Source: Myxococcales bacterium UBA1238 (GTDB lineage Bacteria > Myxococcota_A > Bradymonadia > UBA7976 > UBA1532). Taken from it: 64,000 nt of DNA. The stretch covers positions 15,986 to 79,985 of the forward strand of contig DBWM01000011.1 of NCBI GenBank assembly GCA_002309015.1, given 5' to 3'. Position numbers and translations under genes: made by a program. The notes beneath the pieces were generated by a model. The model saw only the letters and a list, made by a program, of their open reading frames with translations, made no database searches and was not told the DNA's origin. Every line of letters begins with the position of its first letter. Positions within the stretch are counted from its first letter, which is position 1. Shown here piece after piece: positions 6,426 to 34,143 of this stretch.

Positions 6426-6446
6426 GAGCAGAAGTTTTAAAAACGC

Positions 6447-8003: not shown

Positions 8004-8137
8004 CGCATTTCCTTTGCGCGCGGCCCGCATGGGCGGGGCAGATTTTTAAAACCCGGGCAGATCGCAAAACATGCGGGATTTGTCAAGGTTACAAACTTTG
8101 CACCGCACCCTGAGTCCCTACTTTTGCGCCCGAAGTT

Positions 8138-12431: not shown

Positions 12432-12595
12432 GCGGCGATGACCTGCACTGGATGCGGGCAAAAAATTTTTTTTGATGCAGATGCTTTTTTGATGAATAAA
12501 AAACCGAATCGCGCGTTATAGGGCGGTTTTTGAGCGTGCGCAGGCGACGTTTGTGCGCATGGCCCTCATGAGGCGCTTTTGGCAAGGAGTTTTTT

Positions 12596-14239: not shown

Positions 14240-14273
14240 TGCTTGCATTTTGAGAGCATTCTTTGCTTTAAAG

Positions 14274-14322
14274 GCGCGATCCTGAACATTTCCCGCGGGT
14301 CATTTCAGGATCGCGCTTTTTT
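14274..14322 (+). terminator. rho-independent terminator after protease paralog 2
   Basis: 13-bp perfect stem GCGCGATCCTGAA (14274-14286) / TTCAGGATCGCGC (14304-14316), followed by TTTTTT. Confidence 0.75.
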
Positions 14323-14384
14323 GCGCCCAGGAATCGATAACTGACAAAAATACTGAATGAAATCAACCGGTTGTAAGGAGCGAT

Positions 14385-18991: not shown

Positions 18992-20365
18992 TCACGACAG
19001 GGCTTTTTGCCTTCTGAAGAGGATAAAGAGGATCGAGGAGAGGGCGAGGGCGGCGGGGTAGAAGAGCCAGGGGAGGAATGCGAGGGGGTTCAGTTTGACG
19101 ATGCTGGCGGCGATGAGGAGCTGAGCGCCGTAGGGGAGGAAGCCTTGCATGCAGCAGGAGAACGTATCGAGCAGGCTGGCCATGCGGCGGGGGTCGATTT
19201 TGTATTGGGTAGCGATGTGTTGGGCGATCTCGCCGACGGTGAGAATGGCGACGGTGTTGTTGGCGGTGCAGGCGTCGACGAGGGCGACCAAGAGGCCGAC
19301 GGAGAGTTCGGCGCCGCGGCTGGAGCGGATACGGAAGGTGAGTTTTTGGGTGATGTAATGGAGGCCGCCGTTCATGCGGACGATTTCGAGGAGGCCACCG
19401 GCCATCATGGTGACGATGATCAGTTCGCCCATGCCGAGGATGCCTTTGCCCATCGTCTCGAACCAGGTGATGAAGCTGTAGGATCCGTCGAGGATGCCAA
19501 TCGCTCCGGTGAGGATCAGGCCGCCGGTGAGGACGACCATCACGTTGAGACCAAGGAGGGCAGTGATGAGGACGGCGAGATAGGGGATGAGTTTTAAGAA
19601 CTGGATTTCAGGCAGGTTTTGGGGCGAATGGATGCCTTGTCCGAGGAAGAGATAGAGGCCGATCATCAAAAGAGCGGGGGGGAGGGCGATCCAGAAGTTG
19701 GCGCGGAATTTGTCTTTGGGCGCGCAGCCCTGGGTGCTGGTCGCGACGATCGTCGTATCTGAGATGAAGGAGAGGTTGTCGCCAAAGAAGGATCCGCCGA
19801 TGACGATGGCGGACATCATCGCGAGATCCGCTCCGGTCGATTGAGCGAGGCCGAGGGCGATCGGCATGAGGGCGACGATCGTGCCGACGCTGGTTCCAAT
19901 CGCGAGGGAGACGAGGCAGGAAGCTAAAAAGAGGCCGACGAGGAGGATGCTTCCGGGAAAGAGCGAGAGCGTGAAATAGACGGTCGCATCGATGGAGCCC
20001 ATGCCTTTTGCAGAGGCAGCAAAGGCGCCCGCGAGGACAAAAATCCAGAGCATCAGCATCAGGTTCGAGGTGCCCGCCCCCCGGCTATAGCTCAGAATCC
20101 GCTGCATGATCGGTTTGCCCGGCGATGTTGCAATCGCATAGATGCTCGAAAACATGAACGCGACGGTGATCGGCATCTTGTAGAAGTCGCCTGAGACGAT
20201 CGAGGTTGCGAGATAGAGGATGACGAAGACGAACAGGGGACTGAGGGCGAGGAGACCTTGTCTGTGTCCTACCATTTTGCTGGTTTCGAGGGTGGGCGAG
20301 GCCTGTATGACGGCCTCCTCAAAACTGTTGTCGAGATCATTTTCTTTTTCGTCGGTGCGAGCCAC
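18992..20365 (-). CDS. NhaC-family Na+/H+ antiporter-like membrane protein
   Basis: Polytopic membrane protein (~11-12 TM). Sequence style typical of the NhaC C-terminal family (..GAGTSNLMLMLWIFVLAGAFAASAKGMGSIDATV..). The start may instead be the internal Met at 20275. Confidence 0.75.
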   Translation of the reverse strand: MARTDEKENDLDNSFEEAVIQASPTLETSKMVGHRQGLLALSPLFVFVILYLATSIVSGDFYKMPITVAFMFSSIYAIATSPGKPIMQRILSYSRGAGTSNLMLMLWIFVLAGAFAASAKGMGSIDATVYFTLSLFPGSILLVGLFLASCLVSLAIGTSVGTIVALMPIALGLAQSTGADLAMMSAIVIGGSFFGDNLSFISDTTIVATSTQGCAPKDKFRANFWIALPPALLMIGLYLFLGQGIHSPQNLPEIQFLKLIPYLAVLITALLGLNVMVVLTGGLILTGAIGILDGSYSFITWFETMGKGILGMGELIIVTMMAGGLLEIVRMNGGLHYITQKLTFRIRSSRGAELSVGLLVALVDACTANNTVAILTVGEIAQHIATQYKIDPRRMASLLDTFSCCMQGFLPYGAQLLIAASIVKLNPLAFLPWLFYPAALALSSILFILFRRQKALS

Positions 20366-20595
20366 AAAAAATCTCCATAAAAAGTCATTCTGTACGCTAT
20401 ATCCGCGTCGTGGTTTCGATCAAAGTGCAAAATATATACCCACGAAAAAAGTAGGTATAAGAGAGCGATTGAAAACCGGAGGACCGCTTTTGGGGAAGCG
20501 GCTTTTTCAGCTCTCATGGCATGGTGAGGAGAATCTGGAGAAAACGAAAGCGGAGAATGAGGGAGAAGCGCAAATGGGGGGGCGAGGAAATCGCT

Positions 20596-21131
20596 TTATT
20601 TCACCGTTTTCCCCAGCTGGTAGGCGGCCTCGGCGTAGGGGGTGCCTTTGATGCTTCCGGGCGTCCAGATTCCGGGGGCGATCACCTGACCCGCATCTTC
20701 CCAGCCCATATAGTCGATGAGCGTGCGATAATGGGCCACCATCGCATCGGCATCTTTTTTGGCCTGATTGGCGTAAGCCATCAGAAATGCAGCTTTTTTC
20801 TTTACATGAAGCTGGCCGTTCAGCGCATAGAAGCGATCGATCACGGTTTTTAACTGCGCCGAGAAACCAAAATCATACATGGGGGAACAGAAGACGATCA
20901 GATCGGCGCTGACGAGTTCAGATCGCAGGCTCTTTGTGAAGTCATCGTTGAAGATGCAGGGCCCGTTCATCCCACAATGATTGCAGCCCACGCAGGGCCG
21001 AACGTCGCTTTCGGCCGCATTGAAGCGAAGAATTCATACCCCGCTTCCTTTGCACCCTTCTCGAACCGATCGGCCATGTGATTCATGTTGCCATTTTTGC
21101 GCGGGCTGCCCGTCAGTAAGACGATCTTCAT
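20596..21131 (-). pseudogene. flavodoxin-like NAD(P)H-dependent FMN reductase / iron-sulfur flavoprotein-like gene, interrupted by a -1 frameshift
   Basis: ATG at 21131 reads MKIVLLTGSPRKNGNMNHMADRFEKGAKEAGYE and then drifts to a stop. Another frame continues ILRFNAAESDVRPCVGCNHCGMNGPC... to 20596. Total length is 536 nt (not divisible by 3). The junction is at GGGTATGAATTCTTCGC (~21026-21042), consistent with GAAATT having become GAATT. Confidence 0.7.
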
Positions 21132-21264
21132 CTTTTTGTTTTCCCCCCTGGCAGCGTCCGTCGTCGTCCCCGATGCGAGTACCTAAGAGGGGGAAAGCAG
21201 CAGACTGCCCGCCAGCACAGCGGCTGAGGATTGAAGGAACTTACGGCGATCCATGGAGTTTTCC

Positions 21265-22014
21265 CTATTTTTGCCAGATATGGACGATCTCGCCGATATA
21301 CATGTAATGGACGTCGATGCCCCTCTGCTTGTACCAGTCGCGCTGTTCCTGCTGGAGCAGGCTGGAATCGAACTGGGCGGCGTAGATCTTTTTGCATTCA
21401 ATGGCAAAGTCGGACTCGGCGTAGCGCGGGTTTCCGAGCTCGGTCCATTCGGCGGTCAGATGGGCGCCCGCAACTTTATCTTCATCGCGCCCCGAAACGC
21501 GGCCCAGATAAGCCAGCTGATCGCGCATCGCCTCTGGAAAATGCGAAACCGTGAAGTGATCGTTCTTTTGAAGAAAGTCAAAGGTGTAACGACTGGGGCT
21601 GACATAGATGGTGACGACATCCTTGCTCCAAAGACGGCCGATGCTGCCCCAGCCGATCGTCATCAGGTTGGCTTTTTCCTTGTTGCCGGCGGCCACGACC
21701 ATCCAGTCTTCACCAAAAAGCCGCGCCATATTGTAAGGGATCTCGCGCGGCGCGATCTCTTTCCATGCCTTCGAATTCATCTTCCGATCCTCCTGGATTG
21801 CTTTGGCTCTTACGAGCGCAGCCCGCTCCTTCTCCTGGAGTGCTCTGGCTTTTACGAGCTCAGCCAGCTCCTCCTCCTGAATTGCTTTGGCTTTTACGAG
21901 CTCAGCCTGAGCCTCCTCCGACTTTGCAGAAGGCGCCTCCGTTTGGGACTCGCGGCTGCAGGCACAGAGGAACAGACAACCGAAGAGCCATGTGCGGGCA
22001 GATGCGTTCATCAT
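21265..22014 (-). CDS. flavin-reductase-like (FMN-binding split-barrel) protein with N-terminal lipoprotein signal and coiled repeat
   Basis: LFGCLFLCACS lipobox. 3x (E/A)LV(K/R)A(K/R)A(I/L)QE repeat. Then the flavin-reductase-like core (..MVVAAGNKEKANLMTIGWGSIG..VTIYVSPSRYT..). The alternative ATG at 21780 would give a cytoplasmic protein. Confidence 0.65.
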   Translation of the reverse strand: MMNASARTWLFGCLFLCACSRESQTEAPSAKSEEAQAELVKAKAIQEEELAELVKARALQEKERAALVRAKAIQEDRKMNSKAWKEIAPREIPYNMARLFGEDWMVVAAGNKEKANLMTIGWGSIGRLWSKDVVTIYVSPSRYTFDFLQKNDHFTVSHFPEAMRDQLAYLGRVSGRDEDKVAGAHLTAEWTELGNPRYAESDFAIECKKIYAAQFDSSLLQQEQRDWYKQRGIDVHYMYIGEIVHIWQK

Positions 22015-22038
22015 ATGAGACTCTCTGCAGCTTTAAAG

Positions 22039-22854
22039 CTACTTCTTGGCCTTGGCGTTTTCGTCCTTTGAAGACTCCGCCGGCGGCTCTTTTTCTCCCT
22101 CTTTCTTGGCCTTCTTCTTCGTTTGGATCTTATGGAAGCAGGATTCGACGATCTTGTAATCGCTGTTGTAGGCCATGAGCAGTCGCGCGTAGGCGTGATT
22201 GTAGAAGTTGCGCGCTTTTTCGGCGACCTGATTCAAAGCGATCGTGGCGTCATTCTCTGCGCTGATGGCCGCCGCCCGCTTTTCGATCTGATCGCGAATC
22301 TTTTGCATATTGGCTTCGAGATCTGGAATATGATTCCTGAAGAGTTCATAATCCGCATCAGCCGCAATCTTATCGCGCAAACGGTGGATGTAATCGATGT
22401 GATGCGAATAACCGTGATTGGGATTCGACAGCTCCGTCGGGCTCTTAGGGAAAATCTTCAGATAAATCGGATCCTTGGAATCCCCCTGAAGATGCGCCCT
22501 GACCTCGCGCGCAATCTGAAGGACGAGCTTGTGGCTGTCGGTCACCACCTGTTTTAACTCCGCATTGAGCCCCACCCGGTTGGCATTGGCCATCATGAGC
22601 GCATCCTGCGCCTGATGCAGCTGCTGCAGATGATCGCCGCATTCAACCATCAACTGCTTTGGCCCATTCGGCCCCTCAGGATCCTCCGGCGCAGGCTTCC
22701 GCATCAACTGCACGCGCAAAAACAAAATCGAGTTATAAGTGGTCGTATGAGGCGTCTTATCGGTCAGCTGATTCATCCATTCTCTCCCCAGGGCAGCCCC
22801 CGCCACCCCAAAAGGCCAGTCTCCATCACCGGCCATATTCACATTTTTGAGCAT
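22039..22854 (-). CDS. hypothetical helical protein with Lys-rich tail
   Basis: Long ORF with protein-like composition, ending 24 nt upstream of the next gene start. No motif recognised. Confidence 0.55.
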   Translation of the reverse strand: MLKNVNMAGDGDWPFGVAGAALGREWMNQLTDKTPHTTTYNSILFLRVQLMRKPAPEDPEGPNGPKQLMVECGDHLQQLHQAQDALMMANANRVGLNAELKQVVTDSHKLVLQIAREVRAHLQGDSKDPIYLKIFPKSPTELSNPNHGYSHHIDYIHRLRDKIAADADYELFRNHIPDLEANMQKIRDQIEKRAAAISAENDATIALNQVAEKARNFYNHAYARLLMAYNSDYKIVESCFHKIQTKKKAKKEGEKEPPAESSKDENAKAKK

Positions 22855-23075
22855 AGCAGATTCGAGGATTCAAAAAAGAGTTTTTTTTCATGGATGGGCG
22901 ATTTTTTTGAGGGAGGGTGTATGCAGAAGTGATACTTTGAAGGCGTCGTGAGAGCATGGGGAAGGCGATTGAACGATTGAATTCCGTGGGCTTGTGGATC
23001 GATGGCGGTGTTTAACGAGTGAATGGGGGTTATGGAGAGCTGGGCGATGGAATTCAGGGCGTGAATGCCTGTGGC

Positions 23076-23190
23076 GGAAGTTCGGGATGGGGAGTTAACG
23101 CGTGAATGGAGGATGGGGAAGTTCGGGATGGGGAGTTAATGGATGAAGGAAAATGGTGGGGGAGTTCGGGAGATGGGGAGCAGTGGATAG
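23076..23190. repeat. ~41-44-bp tandem repeats (different sequence family)
   Basis: GGAAGTTCGGGATGGGGAGTTAA.. starts at 23076, 23117 and 23161. Confidence 0.6.
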
Positions 23191-23232
23191 AGCGAGCTTA
23201 AACGAATCAGCTGAGCGGATTCGTGAGGTTTT

Positions 23233-23895
23233 TTAATCGTCTTCTTTTGGGGGAATGAGCATCAGACTGGAATCGAACTCTCCCTTTTGCTTGAAATATT
23301 GGATCATATCGATAAACGGATTGAGTTCCTCACCGTCTTCATTGAGATACCATTCAATATACTCCGCATCGCCTTTTGAACCGTAAAAACAGGCTTCAAA
23401 GACCGCTTTTCGGGCCTGGCGCAGGCGATAGGCGTTTAAATTTAAGAGTTCGACGGTATAGCGGCCTTGTTTGGTCTTTCCTTCAATCTGACCATCAGAG
23501 AAAAATCGAAAATGCCTTTCGCAGCCTTCCTGCAAAGGTGAGACGAAGAGCGCTTCATCAAATCTGTTTTGTTTGCTGTGGCCGCAGGTGCTTTGCGCGC
23601 CTTTGGTTTCGCAGGAAGCGACGATGTTTTCATAGCACATCGACTTTTGAGGGTATCGCTCTTTGGGGCAGATATGCTCGTTATGAGCATGATCGGGTGA
23701 AATTCTCTGGCAGCAGTAAGCGCAGAGAAATTTCTGTTCATCAACCAGGCTTTCGCGCAGTTTTCTTGCGATGTTTCGGCCTTCCTCTGTTTGGACGAGC
23801 GCCTGATAAGTGAGGTTGCGACGCTTTTGAAGGTATTGGCTCCAGAACTCAGGCGTGTTCGTTTTCGTGATTCTTCTCATCTTTCCTCTTTGCAT
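23233..23895 (-). CDS. ptuB: HNH endonuclease, Septu PtuB-like (TIGR02646-type)
   Basis: CAYCCQRISPDHAHNEHICPKERYP..NIVASCE....CGHSKQNRF matches the HNH layout of PtuB/retron-associated HNH proteins. It lies immediately downstream of the ATPase and overlaps it. The alternative start at 23880 shortens the overlap. Confidence 0.8.
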   Translation of the reverse strand: MQRGKMRRITKTNTPEFWSQYLQKRRNLTYQALVQTEEGRNIARKLRESLVDEQKFLCAYCCQRISPDHAHNEHICPKERYPQKSMCYENIVASCETKGAQSTCGHSKQNRFDEALFVSPLQEGCERHFRFFSDGQIEGKTKQGRYTVELLNLNAYRLRQARKAVFEACFYGSKGDAEYIEWYLNEDGEELNPFIDMIQYFKQKGEFDSSLMLIPPKEDD

Positions 23896-25165
23896 AGTTG
23901 AGTCTCATCGAGAGCCTGAGGGCATCTGCATGCTGAGCGCCTGTCGTTTCGGAAATCTTTGAGAGCAGCCTTTGCGCGAGATCATACTGCCGATCTTCGA
24001 TCGCCAGCTCTGTATCATGTAAAAGCTTTTCAAAATCCTGGTTTCGGCAGGATGTGTTCATAAACTCTTCAAGGATATAGTTCGCATCATATCCGTTCAT
24101 CTGAGGCAGTTCATCGACGGTGATCGTCTCATCGTGAATCAGTTTTCGGATGCGACAGGGCTGATCGATCTCACCGAGCACCTGCGGAGAATGCGTTGAG
24201 AGCATAAACTGGCAATGGGGAAAGATGGAAAGCAGGTTAGGGATCACTCTCCGCTGCCATTTGGGATGGAGATGGAGTTCGATCTCATCGATGAGAATGA
24301 CGCCTTCTCCTTCGAGCGGTGAGGTGAGCCCGGGATTGGCGATCGCGAGCCTTAAAGCGATGTCACCGACGAGTGCGAGCAAACATTTTTCGCCATCAGA
24401 GAGCTGGCCAAAGCCAATCTTTTGCGCGTTCTTTTCAATACAGATTTTAAACGGCTTCTTCTCTACATGGAGATCTTTAAATTCAGGAATCATCCTTTGA
24501 ATCGCTTCCTGAACCGCTTCATGCTGCCTTCTGTGCCATTTTAAGAACGGATCGGGGTAATCGATCGGCAAAAAATCCTGATCGGCTTCACATTCCCGGA
24601 AGCGTCCAATAAAAGTTCTGAAATCGAGCGCGCTCGAAAGCGCGTTGTCATACGCATTGAAGGGCGAAGTCGCCGGGCGGTAGGTGCGAATGCGTTCCGG
24701 AATCTCTAAGATGGCGCGGTTGGTGGGGTAATAGGCGACGAGAGGCAATCGCGCCTGCATGATCGAGTCGTCATGAGAGATTTCTTCAAAGAATTGCTTG
24801 AAGGGCTCCATGTTTTCGACATGTTCGAGAACGCCATCCGTATTTTCGTAGAATGAATAGCCTTCGCCTCGTTCTGCGTAGATATATTCAGAGATAAAGA
24901 AGCCTTTTTTCCCATCGAACTGATGCTGAAGGATGATTTCGCCCTCATACTGCATCTGTCCGGCGCGAATGTTCTCATTTTTGCCCGAAAGCTCAAACTC
25001 TGAGTCGAAATAACGGCATTTTGAAAGCATGAGCGCCAAAAAATCGAGAATCGTCGATTTGCCTGTGCCGTTATCTCCGATGAAAACATTGAGCCTCGGA
25101 TCAAAATCGAGTTCGAGCTTCTCAATCCCTCTGAAATCCCGGATATTTAATCGTTTGACGCGCAT
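23849..25165 (-). CDS. ptuA: ABC/AAA_15-21-type ATPase, Septu PtuA-like
   Basis: MRVKRLNIRDFRGIEKLELDF. Walker A GDNGTGKST. Signature LSDGEK. Walker B VILIDEIELHLHP. H-loop STHSPQV. Confidence 0.8.
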   Translation of the reverse strand: MRVKRLNIRDFRGIEKLELDFDPRLNVFIGDNGTGKSTILDFLALMLSKCRYFDSEFELSGKNENIRAGQMQYEGEIILQHQFDGKKGFFISEYIYAERGEGYSFYENTDGVLEHVENMEPFKQFFEEISHDDSIMQARLPLVAYYPTNRAILEIPERIRTYRPATSPFNAYDNALSSALDFRTFIGRFRECEADQDFLPIDYPDPFLKWHRRQHEAVQEAIQRMIPEFKDLHVEKKPFKICIEKNAQKIGFGQLSDGEKCLLALVGDIALRLAIANPGLTSPLEGEGVILIDEIELHLHPKWQRRVIPNLLSIFPHCQFMLSTHSPQVLGEIDQPCRIRKLIHDETITVDELPQMNGYDANYILEEFMNTSCRNQDFEKLLHDTELAIEDRQYDLAQRLLSKISETTGAQHADALRLSMRLNYAKRKDEKNHENEHA

Positions 25166-25286
25166 GAGCGGACTCCACCAATCAAAGCGATCAAAGTTTT
25201 AGCAGTTCTGCTGAAACGATGAAACTTATTTTGAAAATATGCGGCTTTTTGGCTTTGAACGATCGTGTTTTTGGGGATGATTTGAC

Positions 25287-26723
25287 TTAGTTGCAAGAAC
25301 CAAGCTGGTTTGAATCGATGTAATCAAAAATGAGAGGCGCTGTTATATCCCTCATAGGCCATCTGATTCTTTCCCGAGGGTGCTCGTTAAAGTATTGTTT
25401 AATTTGTTCAAGCTTATGAATAAACTCTTCCTCTCTTTTATATCCAAAGATCTGCGCAATCTCCTTTAAATGCTCTTTAGAACTTAATCTTTGAGAGAAC
25501 GTTTTCATTATCTGATAATATTTATCGTAACTACATGTGATCGGAATCCAAGGTTTTGATTTGTCAATCCCATTTTGAAAGACCGATGCTTGATAGCAAA
25601 GTGCATCAGCCAAAACGAATTGATCTTGCGTACAAATTCTTTTGTTGAGCGTCTGAACCCAATCATAGGCTATCCCTGAAAAATAGTTCTGCTGATCACG
25701 TTGCTTGATGGCTTCTTCAAGCTTTGAATTGTCATGATAAAATATACAAAAACTTTTATTCTGTTGCGTCATATATATAGTATTTATGGAGTATGTTTTA
25801 CTAAAAATATTTGACAGCTCTTTAAATCTCTCTTCTTTGTGATAAATTGCAATCGTATAAATAAAAAGCTCATGCAGGCGTGTTTTAAGTAACTCTGATT
25901 TGATTGTAGACAAAGGGTTGAGCACATTGAAGATTTCTTCATACGTCTTGGTAATTAATTTCTCAGAACCAGGGACGATATGTACATATTGAAGCAACTC
26001 AAGAAACTGATCCCTGATAAGTTGAGTCTGCTGATAAAGGGACAGGATCTGATCAGATTCGAGTTCTTTTGATGAATCGTCTGAAATCGACTGAATGAAT
26101 TTCTCTTTCACTTCTGCCAAATATTCTTTGAATTTATTTTCTCTTAGAAGATCAGATCCCTCTTTTTTTAAAGAAGCATATTTTCTTTTGAAGAGCTCAT
26201 TGGTGTCTTTAGGGTTGTCGACCCATAAGGGTTTGGTGCCCAGTTCCGGTTCTACAATCTCTGGCTGGCCATAAAGATGCCTTACAAGTTTTTGATAATT
26301 TTCATCTCCATCTTCGAAGTCGCATAGATCGATATAATTTCGTGATTTTAAATAGGCAGGGAGTGGATCTATCCCATCTTCATTGCGTTCAAATATGATT
26401 GGAATAAATTTTGCTTGATCAGCTTTTTTGTAAACTTCAGCAGATATAATCTGCGTTTCACTACCGACGCCTCCAGATCTTTCATTTGCTTTTTTGGAAT
26501 AGATCGGATCCAACAGGATTAAAACGTTGGTGACAGATGGGTCTGTCACACTTTTTTCCATAAAAGCATAGATATCCTGCCCAGGCCTGAGAGACCATTG
26601 GTCTAGCAAGACATTGACGCCATCGCTTTTTAAAAAACACGCCAGTTTAAGGACCTTATTTTTATAGTCCTCGTCTTTCCATGCGTAGGAAATAAAAACT
26701 TTTGGGTGTTCGATCTTTTCCAT
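25287..26723 (-). CDS. SEFIR/TIR-domain protein with uncharacterised ~330-aa C-terminal domain
   Basis: KVFISYAWKDEDYKNKVLKLACFLKSDGVNVLLDQWSLRPGQDI..KANERSGGVGSETQII..KFIPIIFE..LPAYLKSRNYIDL is a typical bacterial SEFIR/TIR N-terminal domain. ATG at 26723 has AAGGAA 9 nt upstream and lies 17 nt after the hsdS stop. The gene is strongly AT-rich. Confidence 0.85.
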   Translation of the reverse strand: MEKIEHPKVFISYAWKDEDYKNKVLKLACFLKSDGVNVLLDQWSLRPGQDIYAFMEKSVTDPSVTNVLILLDPIYSKKANERSGGVGSETQIISAEVYKKADQAKFIPIIFERNEDGIDPLPAYLKSRNYIDLCDFEDGDENYQKLVRHLYGQPEIVEPELGTKPLWVDNPKDTNELFKRKYASLKKEGSDLLRENKFKEYLAEVKEKFIQSISDDSSKELESDQILSLYQQTQLIRDQFLELLQYVHIVPGSEKLITKTYEEIFNVLNPLSTIKSELLKTRLHELFIYTIAIYHKEERFKELSNIFSKTYSINTIYMTQQNKSFCIFYHDNSKLEEAIKQRDQQNYFSGIAYDWVQTLNKRICTQDQFVLADALCYQASVFQNGIDKSKPWIPITCSYDKYYQIMKTFSQRLSSKEHLKEIAQIFGYKREEEFIHKLEQIKQYFNEHPRERIRWPMRDITAPLIFDYIDSNQLGSCN

Positions 26724-26740
26724 TGCTGATTTCCTTTCGA

Positions 26741-28201
26741 TCAGTTCAATTTCAGTCTCTCGCACAGCGGAAGCAACTCCTCAATCTTTGCCACAATGCG
26801 CTTCTGCTCTGCAAGGGGCGGGAGAGGAATCAGAAATTCTGAGAGCTTACCAACTGAGAGAAAATTGAATGTAGTTTTGCCTGCTTTTTGGAGGATGGTT
26901 GCTTTTAATGTTTGAACAAACATGTAAATATAAAGAGGAAATATTACAGGCTTATATATTTCTTTTACGACAAGTGCATTGAATTGTTGATTAGTTGTAA
27001 GTGGTATTTTTGTATATGCGTATTCTCCAACTGAAGCAGTGCAGCATAGTAAGACTGTTTCAGGTGGTACGATTCTCTCTGTATTCTTTGATAATGCTTT
27101 ACGTGTAATAAATTTTTCTGTTTTTGATATAAATCTTCCCTGGCGATGCACATCGTCAATTGTAAACCACGGAATATCTCCATTCTCCCAAAATTCTGGA
27201 TTGCTTTTGAGTGGAGTAAATCCATTAATTATATTGAACACTTCTCCCAGCCGTACCCAAATCCACCCCTCCGGGATTTCGAATGGGATCTCCTCCTCGC
27301 TGATCTCTGGCAGTGCCTTTTCCTTCTTAATCTTCCCAGCCCGAATCAAGGCTTGTTTCTCGCGTTGAATCTCGCGATACAACTCCTCTGCGGTTCCTTC
27401 TTCAGCGCGTTGCTCGACAAGCTTCCCCTGAATCGCAAGTTGCAGAATGGATTTTTGCAAATCTCCCGGAAAACGCCTGTTGAATGCTTCAAGCCGAGTC
27501 CAGGCTTTTTCATAGCGATCGATCAGCGGCAGAATTTCCTCAATCTTCGCGACAATGCGTTTTTGCTCAGCAAGTGGGGGAAGAGGAATCAGAAAATGTT
27601 TGAGCTTTTCTGCTTTAATTCCTTTTGCGGTAGTTCCTGTGCAATTATCTGATAATTGTCCTTGAAATGAGGGAGAGAGTATAAAGTACATCAGCAAAGT
27701 GAGATCTATAGTGTTCTCCTCATATTGTTGAAATGTAATTATCCTTTGGCCACATGAGCTAATTTCTAAATCACATAGTGCAGCGTTTCCCATTGGAGCT
27801 TCGGTTGTAAAAAGTAGATCGCCCTTTTTGGTAATTCCTCTATTTTTTCTGCCCTCATATTCGGACAAAGAAATGTATTCCTTACGAGTGTAGTCCATAT
27901 ACCCATTCTTAATATTTGAAGCGGTAATAAGAAAAACTCCTTCAGATACTTTGGTAGGAGTTTTTCCTCTATAATCAATGAAGTTGACAATCTCATTTAG
28001 CCTCATCATCTTCCAAGAACTTGGAACCTCAAAATCCATTGAAGAATAATCTAATTCATGCTTACATGGGCCAAGTTTAGTAATATATGGCGTTAGCTTT
28101 AAGTGCAGCTCTTCTGCTGTCCCTTCTTCAGCGCGCTGTTCGACGAGTTTGCCCTGGATGGCGAGTTGGAGGATGCTGTTTTTCAAATCTTTGGGTGTCA
28201 T
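26741..28201 (-). CDS. hsdS: type I restriction-modification specificity subunit
   Basis: Two target-recognition domains are separated by duplicated conserved helices: ILQLAIQGKLVEQRAEEGTAEEL x2 and LIPLPPLAEQKRIVAKIEE(I/L)LPL x2. ATGA overlap with fic. Confidence 0.9.
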   Translation of the reverse strand: MTPKDLKNSILQLAIQGKLVEQRAEEGTAEELHLKLTPYITKLGPCKHELDYSSMDFEVPSSWKMMRLNEIVNFIDYRGKTPTKVSEGVFLITASNIKNGYMDYTRKEYISLSEYEGRKNRGITKKGDLLFTTEAPMGNAALCDLEISSCGQRIITFQQYEENTIDLTLLMYFILSPSFQGQLSDNCTGTTAKGIKAEKLKHFLIPLPPLAEQKRIVAKIEEILPLIDRYEKAWTRLEAFNRRFPGDLQKSILQLAIQGKLVEQRAEEGTAEELYREIQREKQALIRAGKIKKEKALPEISEEEIPFEIPEGWIWVRLGEVFNIINGFTPLKSNPEFWENGDIPWFTIDDVHRQGRFISKTEKFITRKALSKNTERIVPPETVLLCCTASVGEYAYTKIPLTTNQQFNALVVKEIYKPVIFPLYIYMFVQTLKATILQKAGKTTFNFLSVGKLSEFLIPLPPLAEQKRIVAKIEELLPLCERLKLN

Positions 28202-28836
28202 CGCGGTTGTTCGGGGGAAGAGAAGGCATCCTGGACGATGCGTTCGAGGTAGCCTTTTTTGGAGAGATCGCCGAGATCGTGAAAGACGGCGTTGTAGGCG
28301 ACGAGGGCGGCGCGCATGTAGACGCTGTTTTCTTCAAAGATTTCGCGGCGAATGGCGAGCTGCTGATCTTCTGCAAACTGGCAGCAAAAGGTGATGACCG
28401 TGCGGGTATTGCCTTCGCGAAAGGGATGGATCTTCCATAACGAAGCCATGTCGAAGCAAAAATGCTGTGCAAATTCGGTGGGTTGCATTTGATGCCAGGA
28501 TCTTTGGGTCATCTGTTGAAGGCAGGAGGTGACCTGCTCTGTGATCGTGTTGTGATCGGCATATTCGACCGAAAGACCGCCCAGGACGGGTTCTTCTTTT
28601 TCGATGTTGATGCGGCGGAATTCCCCGGCCCAGTCGTAGAGATCCTGAAAGAGATAGCGGTGCAGGCGTTTTAAGTGAGAGAGGTCATAACAGCCCGTCA
28701 AGGGATTTTCGGTCAGTTCCCGCAGGCGCAGAGAGGTGTAATCGGCTTCGATTTTGCGAATGAAATCAGGATCTTTGATGGATAATCGGTTCTTTAGAGT
28801 TCGTGTGTTGGGGTATACATAAGGATCCTGCATCAC
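28198..28836 (-). CDS. fic: Fic/Fido-domain protein (class I, VbhT-like toxin)
   Basis: Fic motif HPFREGNTRT. ~210 aa. ATGA overlaps with both the upstream antitoxin-like gene and the downstream hsdS. Confidence 0.9.
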   Translation of the reverse strand: MMQDPYVYPNTRTLKNRLSIKDPDFIRKIEADYTSLRLRELTENPLTGCYDLSHLKRLHRYLFQDLYDWAGEFRRINIEKEEPVLGGLSVEYADHNTITEQVTSCLQQMTQRSWHQMQPTEFAQHFCFDMASLWKIHPFREGNTRTVITFCCQFAEDQQLAIRREIFEENSVYMRAALVAYNAVFHDLGDLSKKGYLERIVQDAFSSPEQPR

Positions 28837-29036
28837 TGTGGGACCTTCATTTTGTATTTCTTATCCAATAAAGCTTTGATGTCGCTGGTGGTGAGCTTGC
28901 CGTCGATTTCCAGTTGGACGTAGCGTTTGAATTCATCGGAGGGCTCCAATCCATCGATGCGGATCATACCGAGGGCGTATTTCCATGCGCGTTCTTTGCC
29001 CGCGCGGTCGATGGGGTTGGATATGTAGTCGTTCAT
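28833..29036 (-). CDS. VbhA-like Fic antitoxin
   Basis: 67 aa. ..ALGMIRIDGLEPSDEFKRYVQLEIDGKLTTSDI.. resembles the VbhA-family (S/T)xxxEG-LEPS helix. Positioned directly upstream of fic. Confidence 0.75.
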   Translation of the reverse strand: MNDYISNPIDRAGKERAWKYALGMIRIDGLEPSDEFKRYVQLEIDGKLTTSDIKALLDKKYKMKVPQ

Positions 29037-29124
29037 GCATGCTCCTCAAAAAGCCGATCAAAGCCCGCAGAATGCCACAAAAAAGGCCAAAAATCCAGCA
29101 AGAAGGGCGAGTTGCAGCTGGGGT

Positions 29125-30153
29125 TTATTCCCTGGAATGCGAAGGTTTTTGGGCAGTGAATGCCTTTAGAGCTTTGTCAAAATCCGATTCGATGGGTTGG
29201 GTGCGGTTGAAAATATCGTATTCGCGGGCGGCTTTCTCCTGGGCGGATTTTTGAGAGACGCGACCGTTGTCTTTTAAAATCTGATATTGTCTAAACTCCA
29301 AAAAGGCGTTCACGCTCTGTTCAAGTTCAGCCATGGTAAAGGTATTCTCGCGTTCAATCAGATCTTCGATATAATCAAAATAGCCTGTGACGGCGCGCTC
29401 AAGCTGGCGGATTTGGCTTTCGTTGAGATAGTTCTTTGCGATCATCACATTGGATTTCAAAATTCGGCCATCGGGCGCATTTTTCCATGTGGTGAGCCCC
29501 ATGTGTTCTTTGGTGTGATCGGCGTTTTGATAGACGATTTCGGCGGCGGTATGTTGGGTGATGGCATAGTGAAATTTGTTTTGAATGGTGGCGTAAAAAT
29601 GGCTGGCGAGTTCGGAATCCCGTGTATAGTCGATGCTGCATTCGGCAAAAATGTCGGTGATTTGCTGCCAGATGCGCCGTTCACTGGCGCGGATAGAGCG
29701 GACGCGCTCGAGGAGTTCCCGGAAGTAATCTTTACCAAAAGCCGTCTTGCCCTGCTTTAAACGGTCGTCATCGAGGACAAATCCTTTTTTGATAAAGTCT
29801 TTGAGGATGCCGGTGGCCCAAATTCGAAACTGGGTGGCTTTTTTGGAATTGACGCGGTAGCCCACAGAAATGATCGCGTCGAGGTTATAAAACTCCGCGT
29901 TTCTTTTGACTTTTCGCGTGCCTTCGTTTTGAACAGTTTCCATTTTGGAAACAGTTGCGTCGCGGCAGAGCTCTCCTTCGTCGTAGATATTGGCCAGATG
30001 TTTGGAAATCGCCGGCACCTGAACCCCAAAAAGCTCCGCCATCGCTTTTTGAGTCAGCCAGACGGTTTCATCCCGGATGTAAGCGCTGATGCTGACTGCG
30101 CCATCTTCTGAGCGATAAAGCATCAGATTCATTTGCTTTTCAAAATTGCTCAT
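29125..30153 (-). CDS. rhuM: RhuM-family protein
   Basis: ..VWLTQKAMAELFGVQVPAISKHLANIYDEGEL..YNLDAIISVGYRVNSKKATQFRIWAT..L is characteristic of RhuM proteins, which are commonly inserted in type I R-M operons. Confidence 0.85.
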   Translation of the reverse strand: MSNFEKQMNLMLYRSEDGAVSISAYIRDETVWLTQKAMAELFGVQVPAISKHLANIYDEGELCRDATVSKMETVQNEGTRKVKRNAEFYNLDAIISVGYRVNSKKATQFRIWATGILKDFIKKGFVLDDDRLKQGKTAFGKDYFRELLERVRSIRASERRIWQQITDIFAECSIDYTRDSELASHFYATIQNKFHYAITQHTAAEIVYQNADHTKEHMGLTTWKNAPDGRILKSNVMIAKNYLNESQIRQLERAVTGYFDYIEDLIERENTFTMAELEQSVNAFLEFRQYQILKDNGRVSQKSAQEKAAREYDIFNRTQPIESDFDKALKAFTAQKPSHSRE

Positions 30154-30166
30154 CGGTCCTCTTCCA

Positions 30167-31672
30167 TCATCCTTCGCGTCCCCCGAGTTTCCCTAGGATT
30201 TCGTCCAAAACGCGGTCGATTTCGGCGTTGAGGGAGGCGCGTTCTTCCTGGTAGCGCTGAATGAGGTCCATCGGCGCCAGAATTTCTTCTTCTTCGTGAG
30301 GGAAGCCGCATTGATCGAGGTTGTACCCCAAATCTCCGGAGAGCTCGGCGGCGGTGTAGCGTTTGGCTTTGGGGAAGCCGTCGAGCGAGATCTCTTCGCG
30401 GCGGTGCCACCATTCGATGACAGGGGCAAAATGCTCGGGCTTCATCGGCTTTGTTTTTGAGAAATGCTTATAGCCTTCGGGCATATCGAGGCGATAGAAC
30501 CAGGTGTTTTGGGTGGGGCCGGTGCGGTCAAAGAACAAGATGTTGGTCGTGATCGAGGTATAGGGCGAAAAGACGCTGCCGGGCAGGCGGATGATCGTAT
30601 GAAGGTTAAATTCAGAGAGGAGTTTTTTCTTGAGATTGATCTTGGCGTTGTCTGTCCCAAAGAGAAAGCCGTCAGGCAAAATGACAGCGGCGCGGCCGTT
30701 CGGTTTTAAGCGATACATGATGACGGCCATGAAGAGATCGGCGGTTTCAGAGCTTGCGAGATCAGAGGGGAAATGATTTTTGACGTCTGATTTTTCGCTG
30801 CCACCGTAGGGTGGATTCATCAAAATGACATCGAACTGATCGCGCTCGTTGTAATCGAGGACGTCAGAGAGCAGGCTGTTTTGATGGAAAATCTGCGGGT
30901 GATCGACGTCGTGCAGGAGCATGTTGGTGATGCAAAGCATGTATGGGAATTGCTTCTTTTCGAAGCCATAAATCGAGCAGCCAAAGGCTTCGCGGTCTTT
31001 TGCGGTTTTGAGCGAAGGTTCGAGGGCTTTTAGCCAGCTCGTCAAAAAGCCGCCGGTGCCGCAGGCAAAATCGGCCATCTTTTCGCCCACTTTGGGTTCG
31101 ATCATCTTCGCCATAAAATCGGTGACTGCGCGCGGTGTATAGAATTCCCCCGATGATCCGGCGCTTTGGAGCTCCTTTAAGATCGTCTCATAGATTTCAC
31201 CGAATGCATGGCTCTCCTCTGTGTCATTTAAGTCGAGTTCGTCAATGATATTCAGGAGTTGGCGCATGAGTACGCCATCTTTCATGTAGTTGTTGGCGTC
31301 TGCAAACACGCTTTTCACGATCGCTTTTTGAATGGGCGTCTCGCGATCGACGGGCAGATTTTTTAAGGTCGGAAACAGGTGGTTGTTGACGAACTCTAAG
31401 AGCGCTTCTCCGGTTTTGGCCTTGCCGTCGCTGTTCTGAGCCCAGTTTTTCCATTGGCATTCTTCGGGGATGATCGATTGATAAGAATTTTGATAAGAAA
31501 AGAGATCATCCCCGCTCAGATCAGCCATCATCCAGTTTTGCTCCTGGCTATCGTAGACCTTTAAAAAGAGCATCCAGGCGATCTGTTCGATGCGTTGCGC
31601 GTCTCCGTTGATGCCGGCGTCGTTGCGCATGACGTCGCGGACGCGCTTTACAAAAGAACCTAACTGACTCAT
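30167..31672 (-). CDS. hsdM: type I R-M N6-adenine DNA methyltransferase subunit
   Basis: HsdM N-terminal region. AdoMet motif DFACGTGGFL. Catalytic MNPPYGG (NPPY). Confidence 0.95.
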   Translation of the reverse strand: MSQLGSFVKRVRDVMRNDAGINGDAQRIEQIAWMLFLKVYDSQEQNWMMADLSGDDLFSYQNSYQSIIPEECQWKNWAQNSDGKAKTGEALLEFVNNHLFPTLKNLPVDRETPIQKAIVKSVFADANNYMKDGVLMRQLLNIIDELDLNDTEESHAFGEIYETILKELQSAGSSGEFYTPRAVTDFMAKMIEPKVGEKMADFACGTGGFLTSWLKALEPSLKTAKDREAFGCSIYGFEKKQFPYMLCITNMLLHDVDHPQIFHQNSLLSDVLDYNERDQFDVILMNPPYGGSEKSDVKNHFPSDLASSETADLFMAVIMYRLKPNGRAAVILPDGFLFGTDNAKINLKKKLLSEFNLHTIIRLPGSVFSPYTSITTNILFFDRTGPTQNTWFYRLDMPEGYKHFSKTKPMKPEHFAPVIEWWHRREEISLDGFPKAKRYTAAELSGDLGYNLDQCGFPHEEEEILAPMDLIQRYQEERASLNAEIDRVLDEILGKLGGREG

Positions 31673-33999
31673 TCAAACACCTCGTCGTAGAGAGCCGCTT
31701 CGAGCTCTGAAATCGCCTGTTTATATCCCGCAGGGCCGTTAAAATAGCCCGCAATTTTGGCGGGTTTACCATATTTTTGAAACTCTGGAAGCTGAAGCAC
31801 CTTGCCCGAGCGCAATTCGCCTGCGCCGTGATCGGCATATTGATCGAGCAGGAGTTCCAGAATGCTGCGGGCTTCGCCTTTGTATTTGTTTAAAAAATCG
31901 CGCTTTTTCACATGATTTGCGCGCTCTTTGCGCGTGAGCGGCTTTTGGTCGTAGGCGATGTGACAAACAAAGTCGAAGTCATCCACATCTTCAAGCTGCT
32001 GGTCTCTTTTTAACTGATCCAGATCGATGCCCTGAAGCCTGAGCATTTCCTTGATGCGACCGGAGTTCGGCGATTTACGCCATTCGCGGATAAAGGCACT
32101 GAGAGAGGCATAATGCCCAAGCAGGCTCGCTTTGGTGTAATCGACGATGTCTTCCTGACGAAGGAGCTTGCCCTCTGTGTCATAAACCGAGACCACACGG
32201 TGGATCACGTAAACCCTGCAGCCGTCTGCGGTCACATAGGGCTTGTAGCGGGGCTCTTTTTCCTCTTCATCGCCGGCATCGTTTTCATCGGACTCCGTTT
32301 CAGACGCTTGCTTTTCTTTCACTTCAAACTGATCGTCGATTTCGATCGGTCCATCCCATTCAGGATCCACAAAAAGCCGCGTGACGCCTCGAAAATCCAT
32401 CACGGTAAACGAAAGCTTGCCGTCAGCTTCCCGAATCCGCGTCCCGCGCCCGATGATCTGTTTAAACTCGGTCATCGAATTCAGGCATTCATCGAGGACG
32501 ATCAGCCTGGTCATCTTGCAATCGGCCCCGGTCGAAAGGAGCTTTGAGGTTGTGACGATGACGGGATATTTCGCGGCGACCGAAATGAAATAGTCGAGTT
32601 TGCCCTTGCCATATTCGTCGCTGCCGGTGATGCGCACCACATAATCCTCGTGCTTGTGCATCATGTCTTCGTTGCATCGGGCGAGCGCATCTCGCATGCG
32701 GAGGGCTGCTTCCTCGGTGGGGCAAAAGACGATCGTCTTCGCCATGCGGTCGGTCTGCTTCAAAAAATCGGTGATCTTCTGCGCAACTTCGCGCGTGCGA
32801 TCCTCGAGGACGATGTTGTAGTCGTAATCGCTGTTGTTATAGATGCGGTCTTCGATTTCGTGCCCGTTGGCGTCGAGTTGTCCCTTGGTGGGCCGCCATT
32901 CGTCGCCGACGTTGGTTTTAAAGCTGATCACCTTAAAGGGCGCCAAAAAGCCGTCATCGATGCCGTTGTTGAGGCTGTAGCTGTAGATGGGCTCCCCAAA
33001 ATAGTTGATGTTTGAAGTGTATCTGGTCTCCTTGGGCGTCGCGGTCATGCCGATTTGAGTCGCACCCGAAAAATATTCGAGGATTTGGCGCCAGGTGCTG
33101 TCCTCTTTGGCCGATCCGCGATGGCATTCGTCGACGATGATGAGGTCAAAGAAGTCGGGTCTGAAATATTTCTTGTAATGCTCCTCGCCGGATTCGCCCA
33201 TGAGCTGCTGATAGAGCGCAAAATAGACCTGGTACGAAGTGAGTTCGGAACGCTTATCCTTTTGAAAATTGATTTTGTGGATGACCTTTTCGAGCGGCGC
33301 AAAATCCTGCTGGATCGACTGATCGACCAGAATATTCCGATCGGCTAAGTATAGGATTTTCTGTTTGATTTCGCTTTTGAGCAGGCGATAGACGATTTGA
33401 AACGCCGTATAGGTTTTGCCGGTCCCCGTCGCCATCACCAAAAGCAAACGCTGCTGTCCCCGCGCGATCGCATCTACGGTGCGGTTGATCGCGATGCGCT
33501 GATAATAACGCGGGGGATATGTGCTTTGGCTGCTGTAGTAGGGCTGCGCGCGAAGCTTCTGCTGCAATTCCGTGGGATTCTCTGCAGAGTTGATGCGCCC
33601 CTGGAGCTCTTCGGGTGTTGGAAACTGATCGAGCGGAATCTCGCGCTCCTTGCCGGTCAAAAAGTCATGTTCCACAAAGCATTCGCCGTTCGAGCTGTAA
33701 GCAAAGTACAGATCGAGCATTTTCGCGTAAGCGATCGCCTGCTGCAGGCCCTCTGAGGGAGCATACCGGTTGGATTTGGCTTCAACCACCGCCACAGAAT
33801 AGTTCGGACGCAAAAAGAGTAAGTAATCCGCGCGCTTAGGCGCCGATCGGCTCGCCAGGTTGCCCCGCAGATTCACCTTTCCGTCGGTCAGCCGCGCCTC
33901 CATTTGGATTTGAAGACGCGGATCCCACGATCGCTCGATTGCGGGCGTAATATAAAGCCGTTTGATGTCTTCTTCGCTGTGCAGGCTCAAATCACTCAT
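31669..33999 (-). CDS. hsdR: type I restriction endonuclease R subunit (EcoAI/EcoEI-like, type IB-like)
   Basis: Helicase motif I MATGTGKT and motif II DECHRGS. C-terminal EcoEI-R-like tail (..LLDQYADHGAGEL..LQLPEFQKYG..). ATG at 33999 (MSDLSLHSEEDIKRLYITPAIE) is preferred. ATGA overlap with hsdM. Confidence 0.95.
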   Translation of the reverse strand: MSDLSLHSEEDIKRLYITPAIERSWDPRLQIQMEARLTDGKVNLRGNLASRSAPKRADYLLFLRPNYSVAVVEAKSNRYAPSEGLQQAIAYAKMLDLYFAYSSNGECFVEHDFLTGKEREIPLDQFPTPEELQGRINSAENPTELQQKLRAQPYYSSQSTYPPRYYQRIAINRTVDAIARGQQRLLLVMATGTGKTYTAFQIVYRLLKSEIKQKILYLADRNILVDQSIQQDFAPLEKVIHKINFQKDKRSELTSYQVYFALYQQLMGESGEEHYKKYFRPDFFDLIIVDECHRGSAKEDSTWRQILEYFSGATQIGMTATPKETRYTSNINYFGEPIYSYSLNNGIDDGFLAPFKVISFKTNVGDEWRPTKGQLDANGHEIEDRIYNNSDYDYNIVLEDRTREVAQKITDFLKQTDRMAKTIVFCPTEEAALRMRDALARCNEDMMHKHEDYVVRITGSDEYGKGKLDYFISVAAKYPVIVTTSKLLSTGADCKMTRLIVLDECLNSMTEFKQIIGRGTRIREADGKLSFTVMDFRGVTRLFVDPEWDGPIEIDDQFEVKEKQASETESDENDAGDEEEKEPRYKPYVTADGCRVYVIHRVVSVYDTEGKLLRQEDIVDYTKASLLGHYASLSAFIREWRKSPNSGRIKEMLRLQGIDLDQLKRDQQLEDVDDFDFVCHIAYDQKPLTRKERANHVKKRDFLNKYKGEARSILELLLDQYADHGAGELRSGKVLQLPEFQKYGKPAKIAGYFNGPAGYKQAISELEAALYDEVFE

Positions 34000-34143
34000 C
34001 AAAAGCGCCTCTCCGGATGCCTGAATCGAGCATGCCCGATTCAAAGGGGGCAATCAAGAAGGGGTGTTTCCAATCCCCCAGCCGTCACCTCACTCCATCT
34101 CGAACCTCTTGCCAAAGCTCTCAGATCCGTTTACTGCATAGCT

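Follow-up and report, generated by a model that had tools for sequence, protein, structure and literature searches.

The region considered here is a ~12-kb defence island within the 64,000-nucleotide stretch of DNA that was analysed (hereafter the window). It is typical of such islands in its composition: a type I restriction-modification (R-M) operon with RhuM and Fic/DOC genes is followed by a SEFIR-domain gene of the bSEFIR family, and then by a Septu pair. The features are, in order of coordinates:

23233..25165, minus strand: Septu genes ptuA (23849-25165; PADLOC PtuA E 2.8e-115) and ptuB (23233-23895; PADLOC PtuB E 3.7e-46)
25287..26723, minus strand: bSEFIR coding sequence, 478 aa plus stop (open reading frame and translation, PADLOC, phrog_11745)
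25290..26204, minus strand: C-terminal all-alpha domain, residues ~174-478, a family-specific part of bSEFIR presumed to act in sensing or regulation
26205..26273, minus strand: inter-domain linker, residues ~151-173, mostly of low confidence in the AlphaFold2 model
26274..26705, minus strand: SEFIR (STIR-clan) domain, residues 7-150 (Pfam, PDB sequence match, Foldseek, bSEFIR model)
26457..26459, minus strand: codon of E89, within GGVGSETQIIS, the candidate catalytic glutamate
26601..26603, minus strand: codon of D41, aligned with D40 of the validated bSEFIR
26731..26736, minus strand: AAGGAA motif resembling a ribosome-binding site
26741..28201, minus strand: hsdS, encoding the specificity subunit of the type I R-M system (Pfam Methylase_S; PADLOC Specificity_I E 4.5e-139)
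28198..30153, minus strand: Fic/DOC (PDC-S04) and RhuM (PDC-S05) genes between hsdM and hsdS (Pfam/PADLOC)
30167..34053, minus strand: the type I R-M genes hsdM and hsdR (Pfam/PADLOC)

The open reading frame that encloses the bSEFIR gene spans 25287..26765 on the minus strand (stop codon at 25287-25289), and is full length, without frameshift or truncation. The start codon preferred in the initial annotation, the ATG at 26723 preceded by an AAGGAA ribosome-binding site, is well supported: the resulting N-terminus (MEKIEHPKVF) agrees with those of 39 full-length homologs, gene calling on two public contigs, from independent sequencing runs, gives an identical 478-aa product, and the AAGGAA motif, identified by consensus resemblance only, lies 7 nt 5' of the ATG. 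A GTG start at 26765, which would overlap hsdS, was rejected, as both the homolog N-termini and the independent gene calls favour the ATG. The sequence motifs by which the SEFIR/TIR-like N-terminus was originally recognized (KVFISYAW, DQWSLRPGQD, GGVGSETQ and KFIPIIF) were each found in the translation.

Compositionally, the bSEFIR gene (GC 0.366) and hsdS (0.410) are indeed AT-rich against a GC-rich background (0.576 and 0.549 in the flanks), from which a recent horizontal acquisition had been proposed. Composition and the taxonomy of its relatives suggest that the gene was probably acquired horizontally, but with a closest known relative of the protein that is only 45% identical, the acquisition cannot be shown to be “recent”. 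HsdM and HsdR are 78% and 68% identical, respectively, to their counterparts at a locus in an Oscillospiraceae MAG, which likewise has a bSEFIR homolog. As for the host, it carries Nqr genes, is GC-rich and does not look like a Firmicute, and the closest named relatives of its YgiQ are from Myxococcota (56-58% identity).

Judged from sequence comparison, the gene is very probably bSEFIR in a divergent but intact form, a one-gene abortive-infection system that is complete in itself. Across the whole protein, the PADLOC bSEFIR model (PDLC03957) matches residues 1-445 with 282 bits (E 2.6e-84; runner-up family E 5.5e-5), and phrog_11745 matches with an E-value of 3e-88. The experimentally validated bSEFIR of Bacillus sp. 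NIO-1130 aligns by BLASTP to residues 4-313 (33% identity, E 4e-53), and a profile of 40 family sequences compared with it by hhalign (probability 100, E 1.8e-52) extends over template residues 4-397, taking in the HEL and WFPxTY motifs; the validated sequence used for these comparisons, from the preprint supplement, comprises 399 residues and lacks the last ~70. Overall, 375 homologs were recovered, and of the 120 listed, most have 470-490 aa and nearly all cover 99-100% of the query. Because bSEFIR was described in 2022, the gene is not a new defence component, contrary to its initial reading as an undescribed one: it is called by a known PADLOC model and is homologous to the validated protein over 399 residues. 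The alternative first offered, a single-gene TIR effector with a new sensor domain, was right as to the type of protein, a single-gene TIR-like effector with a C-terminal, probably sensory, domain of its own, but the domain in question belongs to the described bSEFIR. As both PADLOC and DefenseFinder carry bSEFIR, standard annotation would label the gene as such, and the assignment is of little importance for this window.

The N-terminal assignment to the SEFIR/TIR group is confirmed by Pfam, which matches both TIR_2 (residues 9-147, 6e-19) and SEFIR (residues 7-117, 2e-15; 57.6 bits, cutoff 23). The TIR_2 score (69.1 bits) is slightly higher than that of SEFIR, a comparison made here with hmmscan, while the selection rule of Millman et al., under which the SEFIR match must exceed the TIR match, uses HHsearch against PDB70 and Pfam. 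Among sequences of solved structures the order is reversed, with SEFIR entries reaching an E-value of 2.5e-28 vs. 0.004 for the best TIR. The top entry, and the solved structure that matches residues 7-159 best, is BcSEFIR of Bacillus cereus (PDB 5Y8E, 5Y8F), with 42% identity to 5y8e and a Foldseek TM of 0.82; these crystal structures comprise the SEFIR domain only, and the C-terminal domain is in no solved structure. Taken alone, the SEFIR part scores 226 bits against the PADLOC bSEFIR model. Residues 7-150 would thus be, by homology, the NADase effector. Mutation D40A in the validated bSEFIR abolishes defence (Millman et al., preprint), and this residue is retained here as D41 in both the BLASTP and hhalign alignments and is invariant in 40 sequences. 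Equally invariant is E89, which the validated protein keeps within GGVGDETQII and which, by analogy with TIR NADases, is likely the catalytic residue. Beyond the SEFIR domain, the AlphaFold2 model drops below a pLDDT of 50 at residues 156-168 and 170-172, within the linker.

The remainder of the protein, introduced as a ~330-aa unassigned and helical-looking region, comprises ~310 aa without a match in Pfam (E 0.01) or in NCBIfam (up to E = 1), but it is a conserved domain of the bSEFIR family. Matched alone, this half scores 45 bits against the PADLOC bSEFIR model (E 3e-12) and reaches an E-value of 5e-23 against phrog_11745, so that the novelty once claimed for it gives way to a described system. 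Its helical character is borne out by a separate model, which is all-alpha and confident (pLDDT 87, pTM 0.88). Foldseek searches with this model returned nothing significant among PDB folds (best E 0.11) and no match among the viral structures of BFVD (best E 0.19), and the full model retrieved SEFIR/TIR matches only, plus designed-helical-repeat noise. In a profile search of PDB sequences, the C-terminal domain gave only weak matches, of its helical residues 173-319 to the dynein stalk (best E 0.004), which were read as coiled-coil composition, not homology, and set aside.

The C-terminal domain has 184 representatives among 1.84 billion proteins, and most full-length ones among the 150 listed place a region of ~150 aa before it; the nine distant members checked in Pfam all have a SEFIR domain at the N-terminus (9/9). 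Among the matches listed, the domain is almost confined to bSEFIR proteins, with one exception, a PD-T4-6-like Ser/Thr kinase fused to it in P0181 (646 aa, 4 contigs). The C-terminal domain of this fusion is 26% identical to that of the window protein over 268 aligned columns (E 2e-31), and keeps the HEL, ADxLC and WFPxTY motifs. The window protein, unlike P0181, has no kinase domain, and the link between the two bears only on the portability of the C-terminal domain.

Among known systems, the closest in architecture is the NIO-1130 bSEFIR, which like the window protein joins a SEFIR domain of ~150 aa to an alpha-helical C-terminal part of ~310 aa (468-480 aa in total), and the two have in common D40/D41, GGVGxETQII, HEL and W(F/I)PxT. 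Beyond its divergence from that ortholog, the window copy differs in its GC-rich non-Firmicute host, in two substitutions (F393I and Y397C) and in its position at the end of a type I R-M operon. Thoeris ThsB, the TIR-APAZ protein of SPARTA and AbTir have the STIR-clan fold in common with the window SEFIR (Foldseek), and NAD+ cleavage chemistry is, according to the literature, common to TIR NADases and bSEFIR, although SEFIR forms an outgroup to TIR, which sets it apart from the TIR NADases. A Thoeris-like reading was rejected: the ThsB model matches the window protein weakly (E 0.0027, PADLOC), and the nine neighbouring proteins scanned (18995-34053) include no ThsA-like protein, Argonaute or other partner, as the initial annotation had said of known TIR partners. 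The domain fold is also that of the eukaryotic SEFIR of IL-17 receptors and Act1 (TRAF3IP2), the IL-17RA/RB/ACT1 assembly (9ot1_E) being the third-best Foldseek match, with a sequence-profile E-value of 0.003. These eukaryotic domains are signalling scaffolds without a homolog of the bSEFIR C-terminal domain, and we know of no NADase role for them.

Could the SEFIR protein instead be a co-transcribed accessory of the type I R-M or Septu system, triggered by them or acting as their second-line effector, and so not autonomous? In the window, the hsdS stop codon (26741-26743) is separated from the bSEFIR ATG by 17 nt, and a 121-nt gap 3' of bSEFIR leads to the ptuA ATG (25165), both PtuA and PtuB being complete; both distances had been given correctly at the outset. 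A simple scan of the minus strand found no promoter-like site and no terminator-like site in either the hsdS-bSEFIR or the bSEFIR-ptuA gap, in line with the earlier remark that no terminator lies on either side, and its sole minus-strand terminator-like match (28241-28226) is upstream, at the fic/hsdS junction. Transcription of hsdS may continue into the gene. Across genomes, the homolog and the gene upstream of it share a strand in 59 of 76 species-level loci, with a median gap of 48 nt; HsdR is the commonest family in that position (9/76), BREX genes flank the homolog in ~4 loci, in several loci the homolog lies inside BREX between BrxC and PglX, and a type I locus occurs within 10 kb in a few further loci.

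However, the immediate neighbours are heterogeneous, and ~80% of the 76 loci have no type I R-M, BREX or Septu gene adjoining the homolog; where it is embedded in operons, these are unrelated to one another (type I, type II or III methyltransferases, BREX), and relatives are also found alone beside integrases, in prophages and on plasmids. The association with Septu is rare. Among the 80 loci scanned for Ptu, a PtuAB pair stands beside the homolog only in a BREX-embedded lineage (L006-L009), where the homolog lies directly 3' of PtuA-PtuB; a PtuB-like ORF alone was found on one short contig (L052), three other loci have only weak PtuA-like matches 1.8-5 kb away, and no Ptu family ranks among the top neighbour families (76 loci upstream, 74 downstream). 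Neighbours as varied as these speak for a gene lodged in a defence island rather than one with an obligate partner, and it is a general trait of defence islands that independent defence genes are embedded in R-M or BREX operons. Furthermore, the validated ortholog acts alone: the NIO-1130 bSEFIR gene, cloned by itself with its native promoter, gives protection from phi29 (Millman et al., preprint). We therefore consider a TIR module working with R-M or Septu, as first suggested, to be very improbable; by analogy with the ortholog, bSEFIR would be independent of its neighbours. Two narrower versions were rejected, a third Septu component as Ptu adjacency is rare among homologs, and a conserved component of hsdRMS operons as most loci have no type I genes. 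That bSEFIR often lies on the same strand directly 3' of R-M or BREX genes is nonetheless to be weighed in studies of its regulation.

It is very unlikely that the window copy is inactive or repurposed, i.e., a decaying passenger or a SEFIR interaction scaffold without NADase or defence role. For such a reading, the protein departs from the consensus at 18 of the 113 columns that are ≥90% conserved, including the two substitutions noted above, which fall within a WFPxTY motif otherwise kept by the 39 homologs as well as by the validated protein and the kinase fusion; the composition of its gene stands out from that of the foreign host, and an earlier structural paper, cited by Millman et al. 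(preprint), proposed bacterial SEFIR domains as general interaction modules. Against it, the full-length reading frame lies within a dense defence island, the identical protein was obtained in two sequencing runs, both domains are modelled confidently, and at all 56 columns that are invariant in the 40-sequence alignment, window protein included, the family residue is present (e.g., D41, GGVG-x-E, H284/E285 and D373).

For an active single-gene bSEFIR, a mechanism can be proposed from the published biology of the family. bSEFIR was validated experimentally in 2022 as a single-gene anti-phage system, and is reported to deplete NAD+ directly through its N-terminal SEFIR domain, without signalling to a separate effector; phages escape it through mutations in their major capsid protein, and phage NARP1 counteracts it. 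Phage protection and infection-dependent NAD+ depletion were established for the NIO-1130 ortholog, and by analogy the window copy would likewise suffice as a single gene, deplete NAD+, be escaped through capsid mutations and be open to counteraction by NARP1. The all-alpha C-terminal domain (~174-478) would most likely hold the protein inactive and sense infection; on triggering, an interface that includes D41 would bring SEFIR domains together, NAD+ would be cleaved to ADP-ribose and nicotinamide with E89 the likely catalytic residue, and the resulting loss of NAD+ would starve both the phage and the infected cell.

Finally, it is tempting to speculate, although we hold this to be a doubtful proposal, that the C-terminal domain senses phage as a portable module not bound to one effector, of a fold not in any solved structure and common to the SEFIR NADase and at least one PD-T4-6-like Ser/Thr kinase, in which the strictly conserved polar residues E262, H284/E285, D373, C376 and E417 would form a ligand- or capsid-recognition site, and that the gene's frequent position at the 3' end of operons for type I R-M and BREX would provide a co-expressed, layered second line of defence. 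The kinase fusion supports the domain as a swappable sensor, and a confident all-alpha model without a solved or viral structural relative is of modest value for the bSEFIR family. If true, the portable sensor would be a property of the whole bSEFIR family, with nothing in it specific to this window.

The gene examined here lies in an island whose genes, all on the minus strand, follow the order hsdR, hsdM, RhuM (PDC-S05), Fic/DOC (PDC-S04), hsdS, bSEFIR, Septu PtuA and PtuB (PDC-S04 and PDC-S05 are PADLOC candidate defence families). The features in or next to it are:

25287-26765, minus strand: ORF of the bSEFIR gene
28198-30153, minus strand: RhuM-family gene (PDC-S05, E 5e-156) and Fic/DOC gene (PDC-S04, E 2e-52), identified with PADLOC, between hsdM and hsdS
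22039-22854, minus strand: 271-aa ORF just downstream of ptuB

This last ORF, for which no Pfam, PADLOC or PHROG match was found, lies on the margin of the lower-GC island, to whose cargo it may also belong. The gene calls of an identical public contig (L001) include a 67-aa ORF between RhuM and Fic/DOC, a candidate small partner or antitoxin for the latter.

The bSEFIR ORF is real, and its most likely start is the ATG at 26723, with which the N-termini of 39 full-length homologs agree and which has an AAGGAA motif 7 nt on its 5' side. The resulting product is 478 aa long (N-terminus MEKIEHPKVFISYAW), and an identical 478-aa protein is called on two independent public contigs. A gap of 17 nt separates this ATG from the hsdS stop codon upstream, and one of 121 nt separates the gene from the ptuA start downstream; GC content is 0.366 for the bSEFIR gene and 0.410 for hsdS, against 0.576 and 0.549 in the flanks and 0.47-0.53 in the other island genes. 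Pfam recognizes TIR_2 (residues 9-147) and SEFIR (residues 7-117), with no Pfam match in the remaining 330 residues and no NCBIfam match for the protein. ORF calls, Pfam and GC content thus bear out all factual elements of the initial annotation on this gene (ORF, spacing, motif-bearing domain, AT-richness). A simple consensus scan found neither a minus-strand promoter-like site nor, in the gaps flanking bSEFIR, a minus-strand terminator-like site, which is compatible with co-transcription with the neighbours but does not prove it.

The gene had been put forward as an undescribed defence component, yet it has already been described as bSEFIR (Millman et al., 10.1101/2022.05.11.491447). The PADLOC-DB bSEFIR model (PDLC03957) matches residues 1-445 with an E-value of 2.6e-84 (282 bits), the next-best family reaching only 5.5e-5, and the N-terminal 149 residues scanned alone score 226 bits against it. 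[quoted passage not shown] By BLASTP, residues 4-313 align to its residues 3-320 (33% identity, E 4e-53), well beyond SEFIR and spanning the conserved LHEL(F/I)(I/L)Y helix, while a 40-member family profile covers its residues 4-397 (probability 100, E 1.8e-52), taking in the terminal WFPxTY motif. Since both alignments reach beyond the SEFIR domain, homology indicates that the gene is a bSEFIR member along its whole length; this family corresponds to phrog_11745. Over residues 7-159, the protein shares 42% identity and the SEFIR fold with the B. cereus SEFIR domain 5Y8E, its best solved-structure relative (E 2.5e-28, Foldseek TM 0.82), followed in the structure ranking by the human IL-17RA/RB/ACT1 SEFIR assembly and TIR domains. 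All 40 aligned sequences carry D41, the counterpart of the validated protein's D40, and likewise E89 within GGVG-x-E-T-Q-I-I-S.

The D40A mutation abolished bSEFIR defence, and homologs were reported in 460 genomes from >20 phyla (10.1101/2022.05.11.491447). SEFIR was later characterized as a single-protein system in which NAD+ is depleted via the N-terminal SEFIR domain, giving ADPR and nicotinamide, and which the phage NARP1 pathway overcomes (10.1101/2024.02.11.579819). Phages escape bSEFIR through major capsid protein mutations, and the capsid protein by itself triggers no bSEFIR toxicity (10.1101/2022.08.27.505566). The initial suggestion of a TIR-like effector that acts as a single gene and has its own, probably sensory, domain was hence of the right kind, the family being bSEFIR.

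Regarding the C-terminal domain, which had been left unplaced, it is still without an assigned fold or function, but it is the C-terminal hallmark of a known family: its 329 residues scanned alone match profile positions 180-370 of the bSEFIR model (E 3.3e-12). A search of 5.8 billion clustered proteins yielded 375 homologs of the full protein, the best 120 of which are mostly 470-490 aa long, 38-45% identical, nearly all covering 99-100% of the query, and mostly from Clostridia. Against the 39 aligned homologs, identity averages 59% over the N-terminal domain and 32% over the C-terminal one; in the latter, E262, E285, F287, Y311, Y347, G350, A372, D373, C376, W392, P394, Y399, S415 and E417 are invariant, and at least 90% of sequences share H284. 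AlphaFold2 produced a confident two-domain model of the full-length protein (pLDDT 84) and an almost wholly helical model of residues 167-478 alone (pLDDT 87, pTM 0.88). Foldseek searches with the C-terminal domain gave no significant match: the top hit in PDB (350,542 chains) had E 0.11 and a TM of about 0.2, and the top one in BFVD had E 0.19. Exhaustive phmmer with the C-terminal 329 residues as query against 1.84 billion representatives recovered only 184 proteins; among the 150 listed, most of the full-length ones measure about 470-490 aa and have the domain at about 150-480, and all nine distant ones checked carry an N-terminal SEFIR domain. The one exception to this pairing is a kinase fusion protein, P0181:

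L090 (public contig), 4846-6786: P0181, 646 aa, on four contigs; kinase at residues 54-264, C-terminal domain at residues 385-643

Its Ser/Thr kinase domain is PD-T4-6-like (PD-T4-6 models, E 2.8e-38), and its C-terminal module is that of bSEFIR (26% identity over 268 aligned columns, E 2e-31; HEL, ADxLC and WFPxTY kept), the effector being swapped. An exchange of effectors on one presumed sensor module is what a sensory or regulatory role would predict. About 3.6 kb upstream of P0181 there is a DUF6414 gene.

To place the island in context, neighbours were surveyed at 80 species-level loci encoding homologs. In 59/76 loci the gene upstream shares the homolog's strand, and the median gap is 48 nt, so homologs often follow closely on other genes. 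The neighbours are heterogeneous: type I HsdR is immediately upstream in 9/76 loci, about 4 have BrxC upstream or PglX downstream, type II or III methyltransferases adjoin the homolog in 4-5, and no Ptu family is at the top of the upstream or downstream family lists. Other homologs have as neighbours an integrase plus PemK and GmrSD, or prophage lysis genes; relatives covering >90% of the query are carried by two distinct prophages as well as by Bacillus and Pseudomonas plasmids. Searching with the window's PtuA, PtuB and Hsd proteins gave the same heterogeneous picture, a PtuAB pair adjoining a homolog only in one BREX-embedded lineage (L006-L009), with a PtuB-like ORF alone on a short contig (L052) and weak PtuA-like matches only, 1.8-5 kb away, at three other loci.

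L006-L009 (gut-metagenome Clostridia), 5900-9440: bSEFIR homolog directly after a Septu PtuA-PtuB pair

This lineage is a second case of Septu beside bSEFIR, in the opposite order to the window's; in it and in two further gut-metagenome Clostridia loci (L010, L012) the homolog lies within a BREX operon, between brxC and pglX. An Oscillospiraceae MAG (L044, 1865-11443) carries a type I R-M system with HsdM 78% and HsdR 68% identical to the window's, and a bSEFIR homolog, 38% identical, 2.3 kb downstream of hsdS; the three intervening ORFs (116, 277 and 268 aa) have no PADLOC match. This suggests that related R-M cassettes collect different cargo at their 3' ends.

The pattern is that of a mobile autonomous defence gene settling in defence islands and inside R-M/BREX operons, and not that of a dedicated hsdS or ptuA partner, for which recurrent adjacency had been proposed as a check. 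The proposal that the protein is a TIR module working with R-M or Septu thus found no backing, and given this pattern and the single-gene protection shown for the ortholog, we consider functional coupling of bSEFIR to its neighbours very unlikely.

The host of the gene is GC-rich and not a Firmicute, and its lineage is poorly sampled, since the best named relatives of the window's YgiQ radical-SAM protein, from Myxococcota, share only 56-58% identity with it. Elsewhere, the window carries genes for Nqr subunits, P-domain papain-like peptidases and a protein with FGE-sulfatase and subtilase domains:

10797-15911, plus strand: three tandem paralogous genes (544, 547 and 508 aa), each with papain-like Peptidase_C1 and a C-terminal proprotein-convertase P-domain
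50166-53978, plus strand: 1270-aa protein with EGF-like repeats, subtilase (Peptidase_S8) and FGE-sulfatase, an unusual mix for a bacterium

The nearest bSEFIR relatives come from low-GC Clostridia. Of the "recent horizontal acquisition" initially proposed, composition and taxonomy support the horizontal part; the closest relative among the 120 listed of 375 is only 45% identical, too distant to point to a donor or to support "recent".

The window bSEFIR is probably functional. Its ORF is intact, and two sequencing runs give the same sequence. Of 113 columns with at least 90% conservation, it matches the family at 95 and differs at 18; two of the differences (F393I and Y397C) fall within WFPxTY, which here reads WIPITC but is retained by the 39 homologs, the validated protein and the kinase fusion alike. 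This variant may mean altered specificity or reduced function. The protein has full-length homology to bSEFIR, conserved D41 and E89, and no conserved partner gene; single-gene protection, NAD+ depletion, capsid-linked escape and abortive infection come from the literature on the ortholog. In the proposed mechanism, the SEFIR domain would be held inactive by the C-terminal domain, which would sense a capsid-related cue; activation would proceed by SEFIR-SEFIR association via the D41 surface, and E89 would be the catalytic residue for cleavage of NAD+ to ADPR and nicotinamide. The C-terminal domain with its fold and presumed ligand, its transfer to a kinase effector and the frequent placement behind R-M and BREX genes are matters of the whole bSEFIR family, none of them peculiar to this window.
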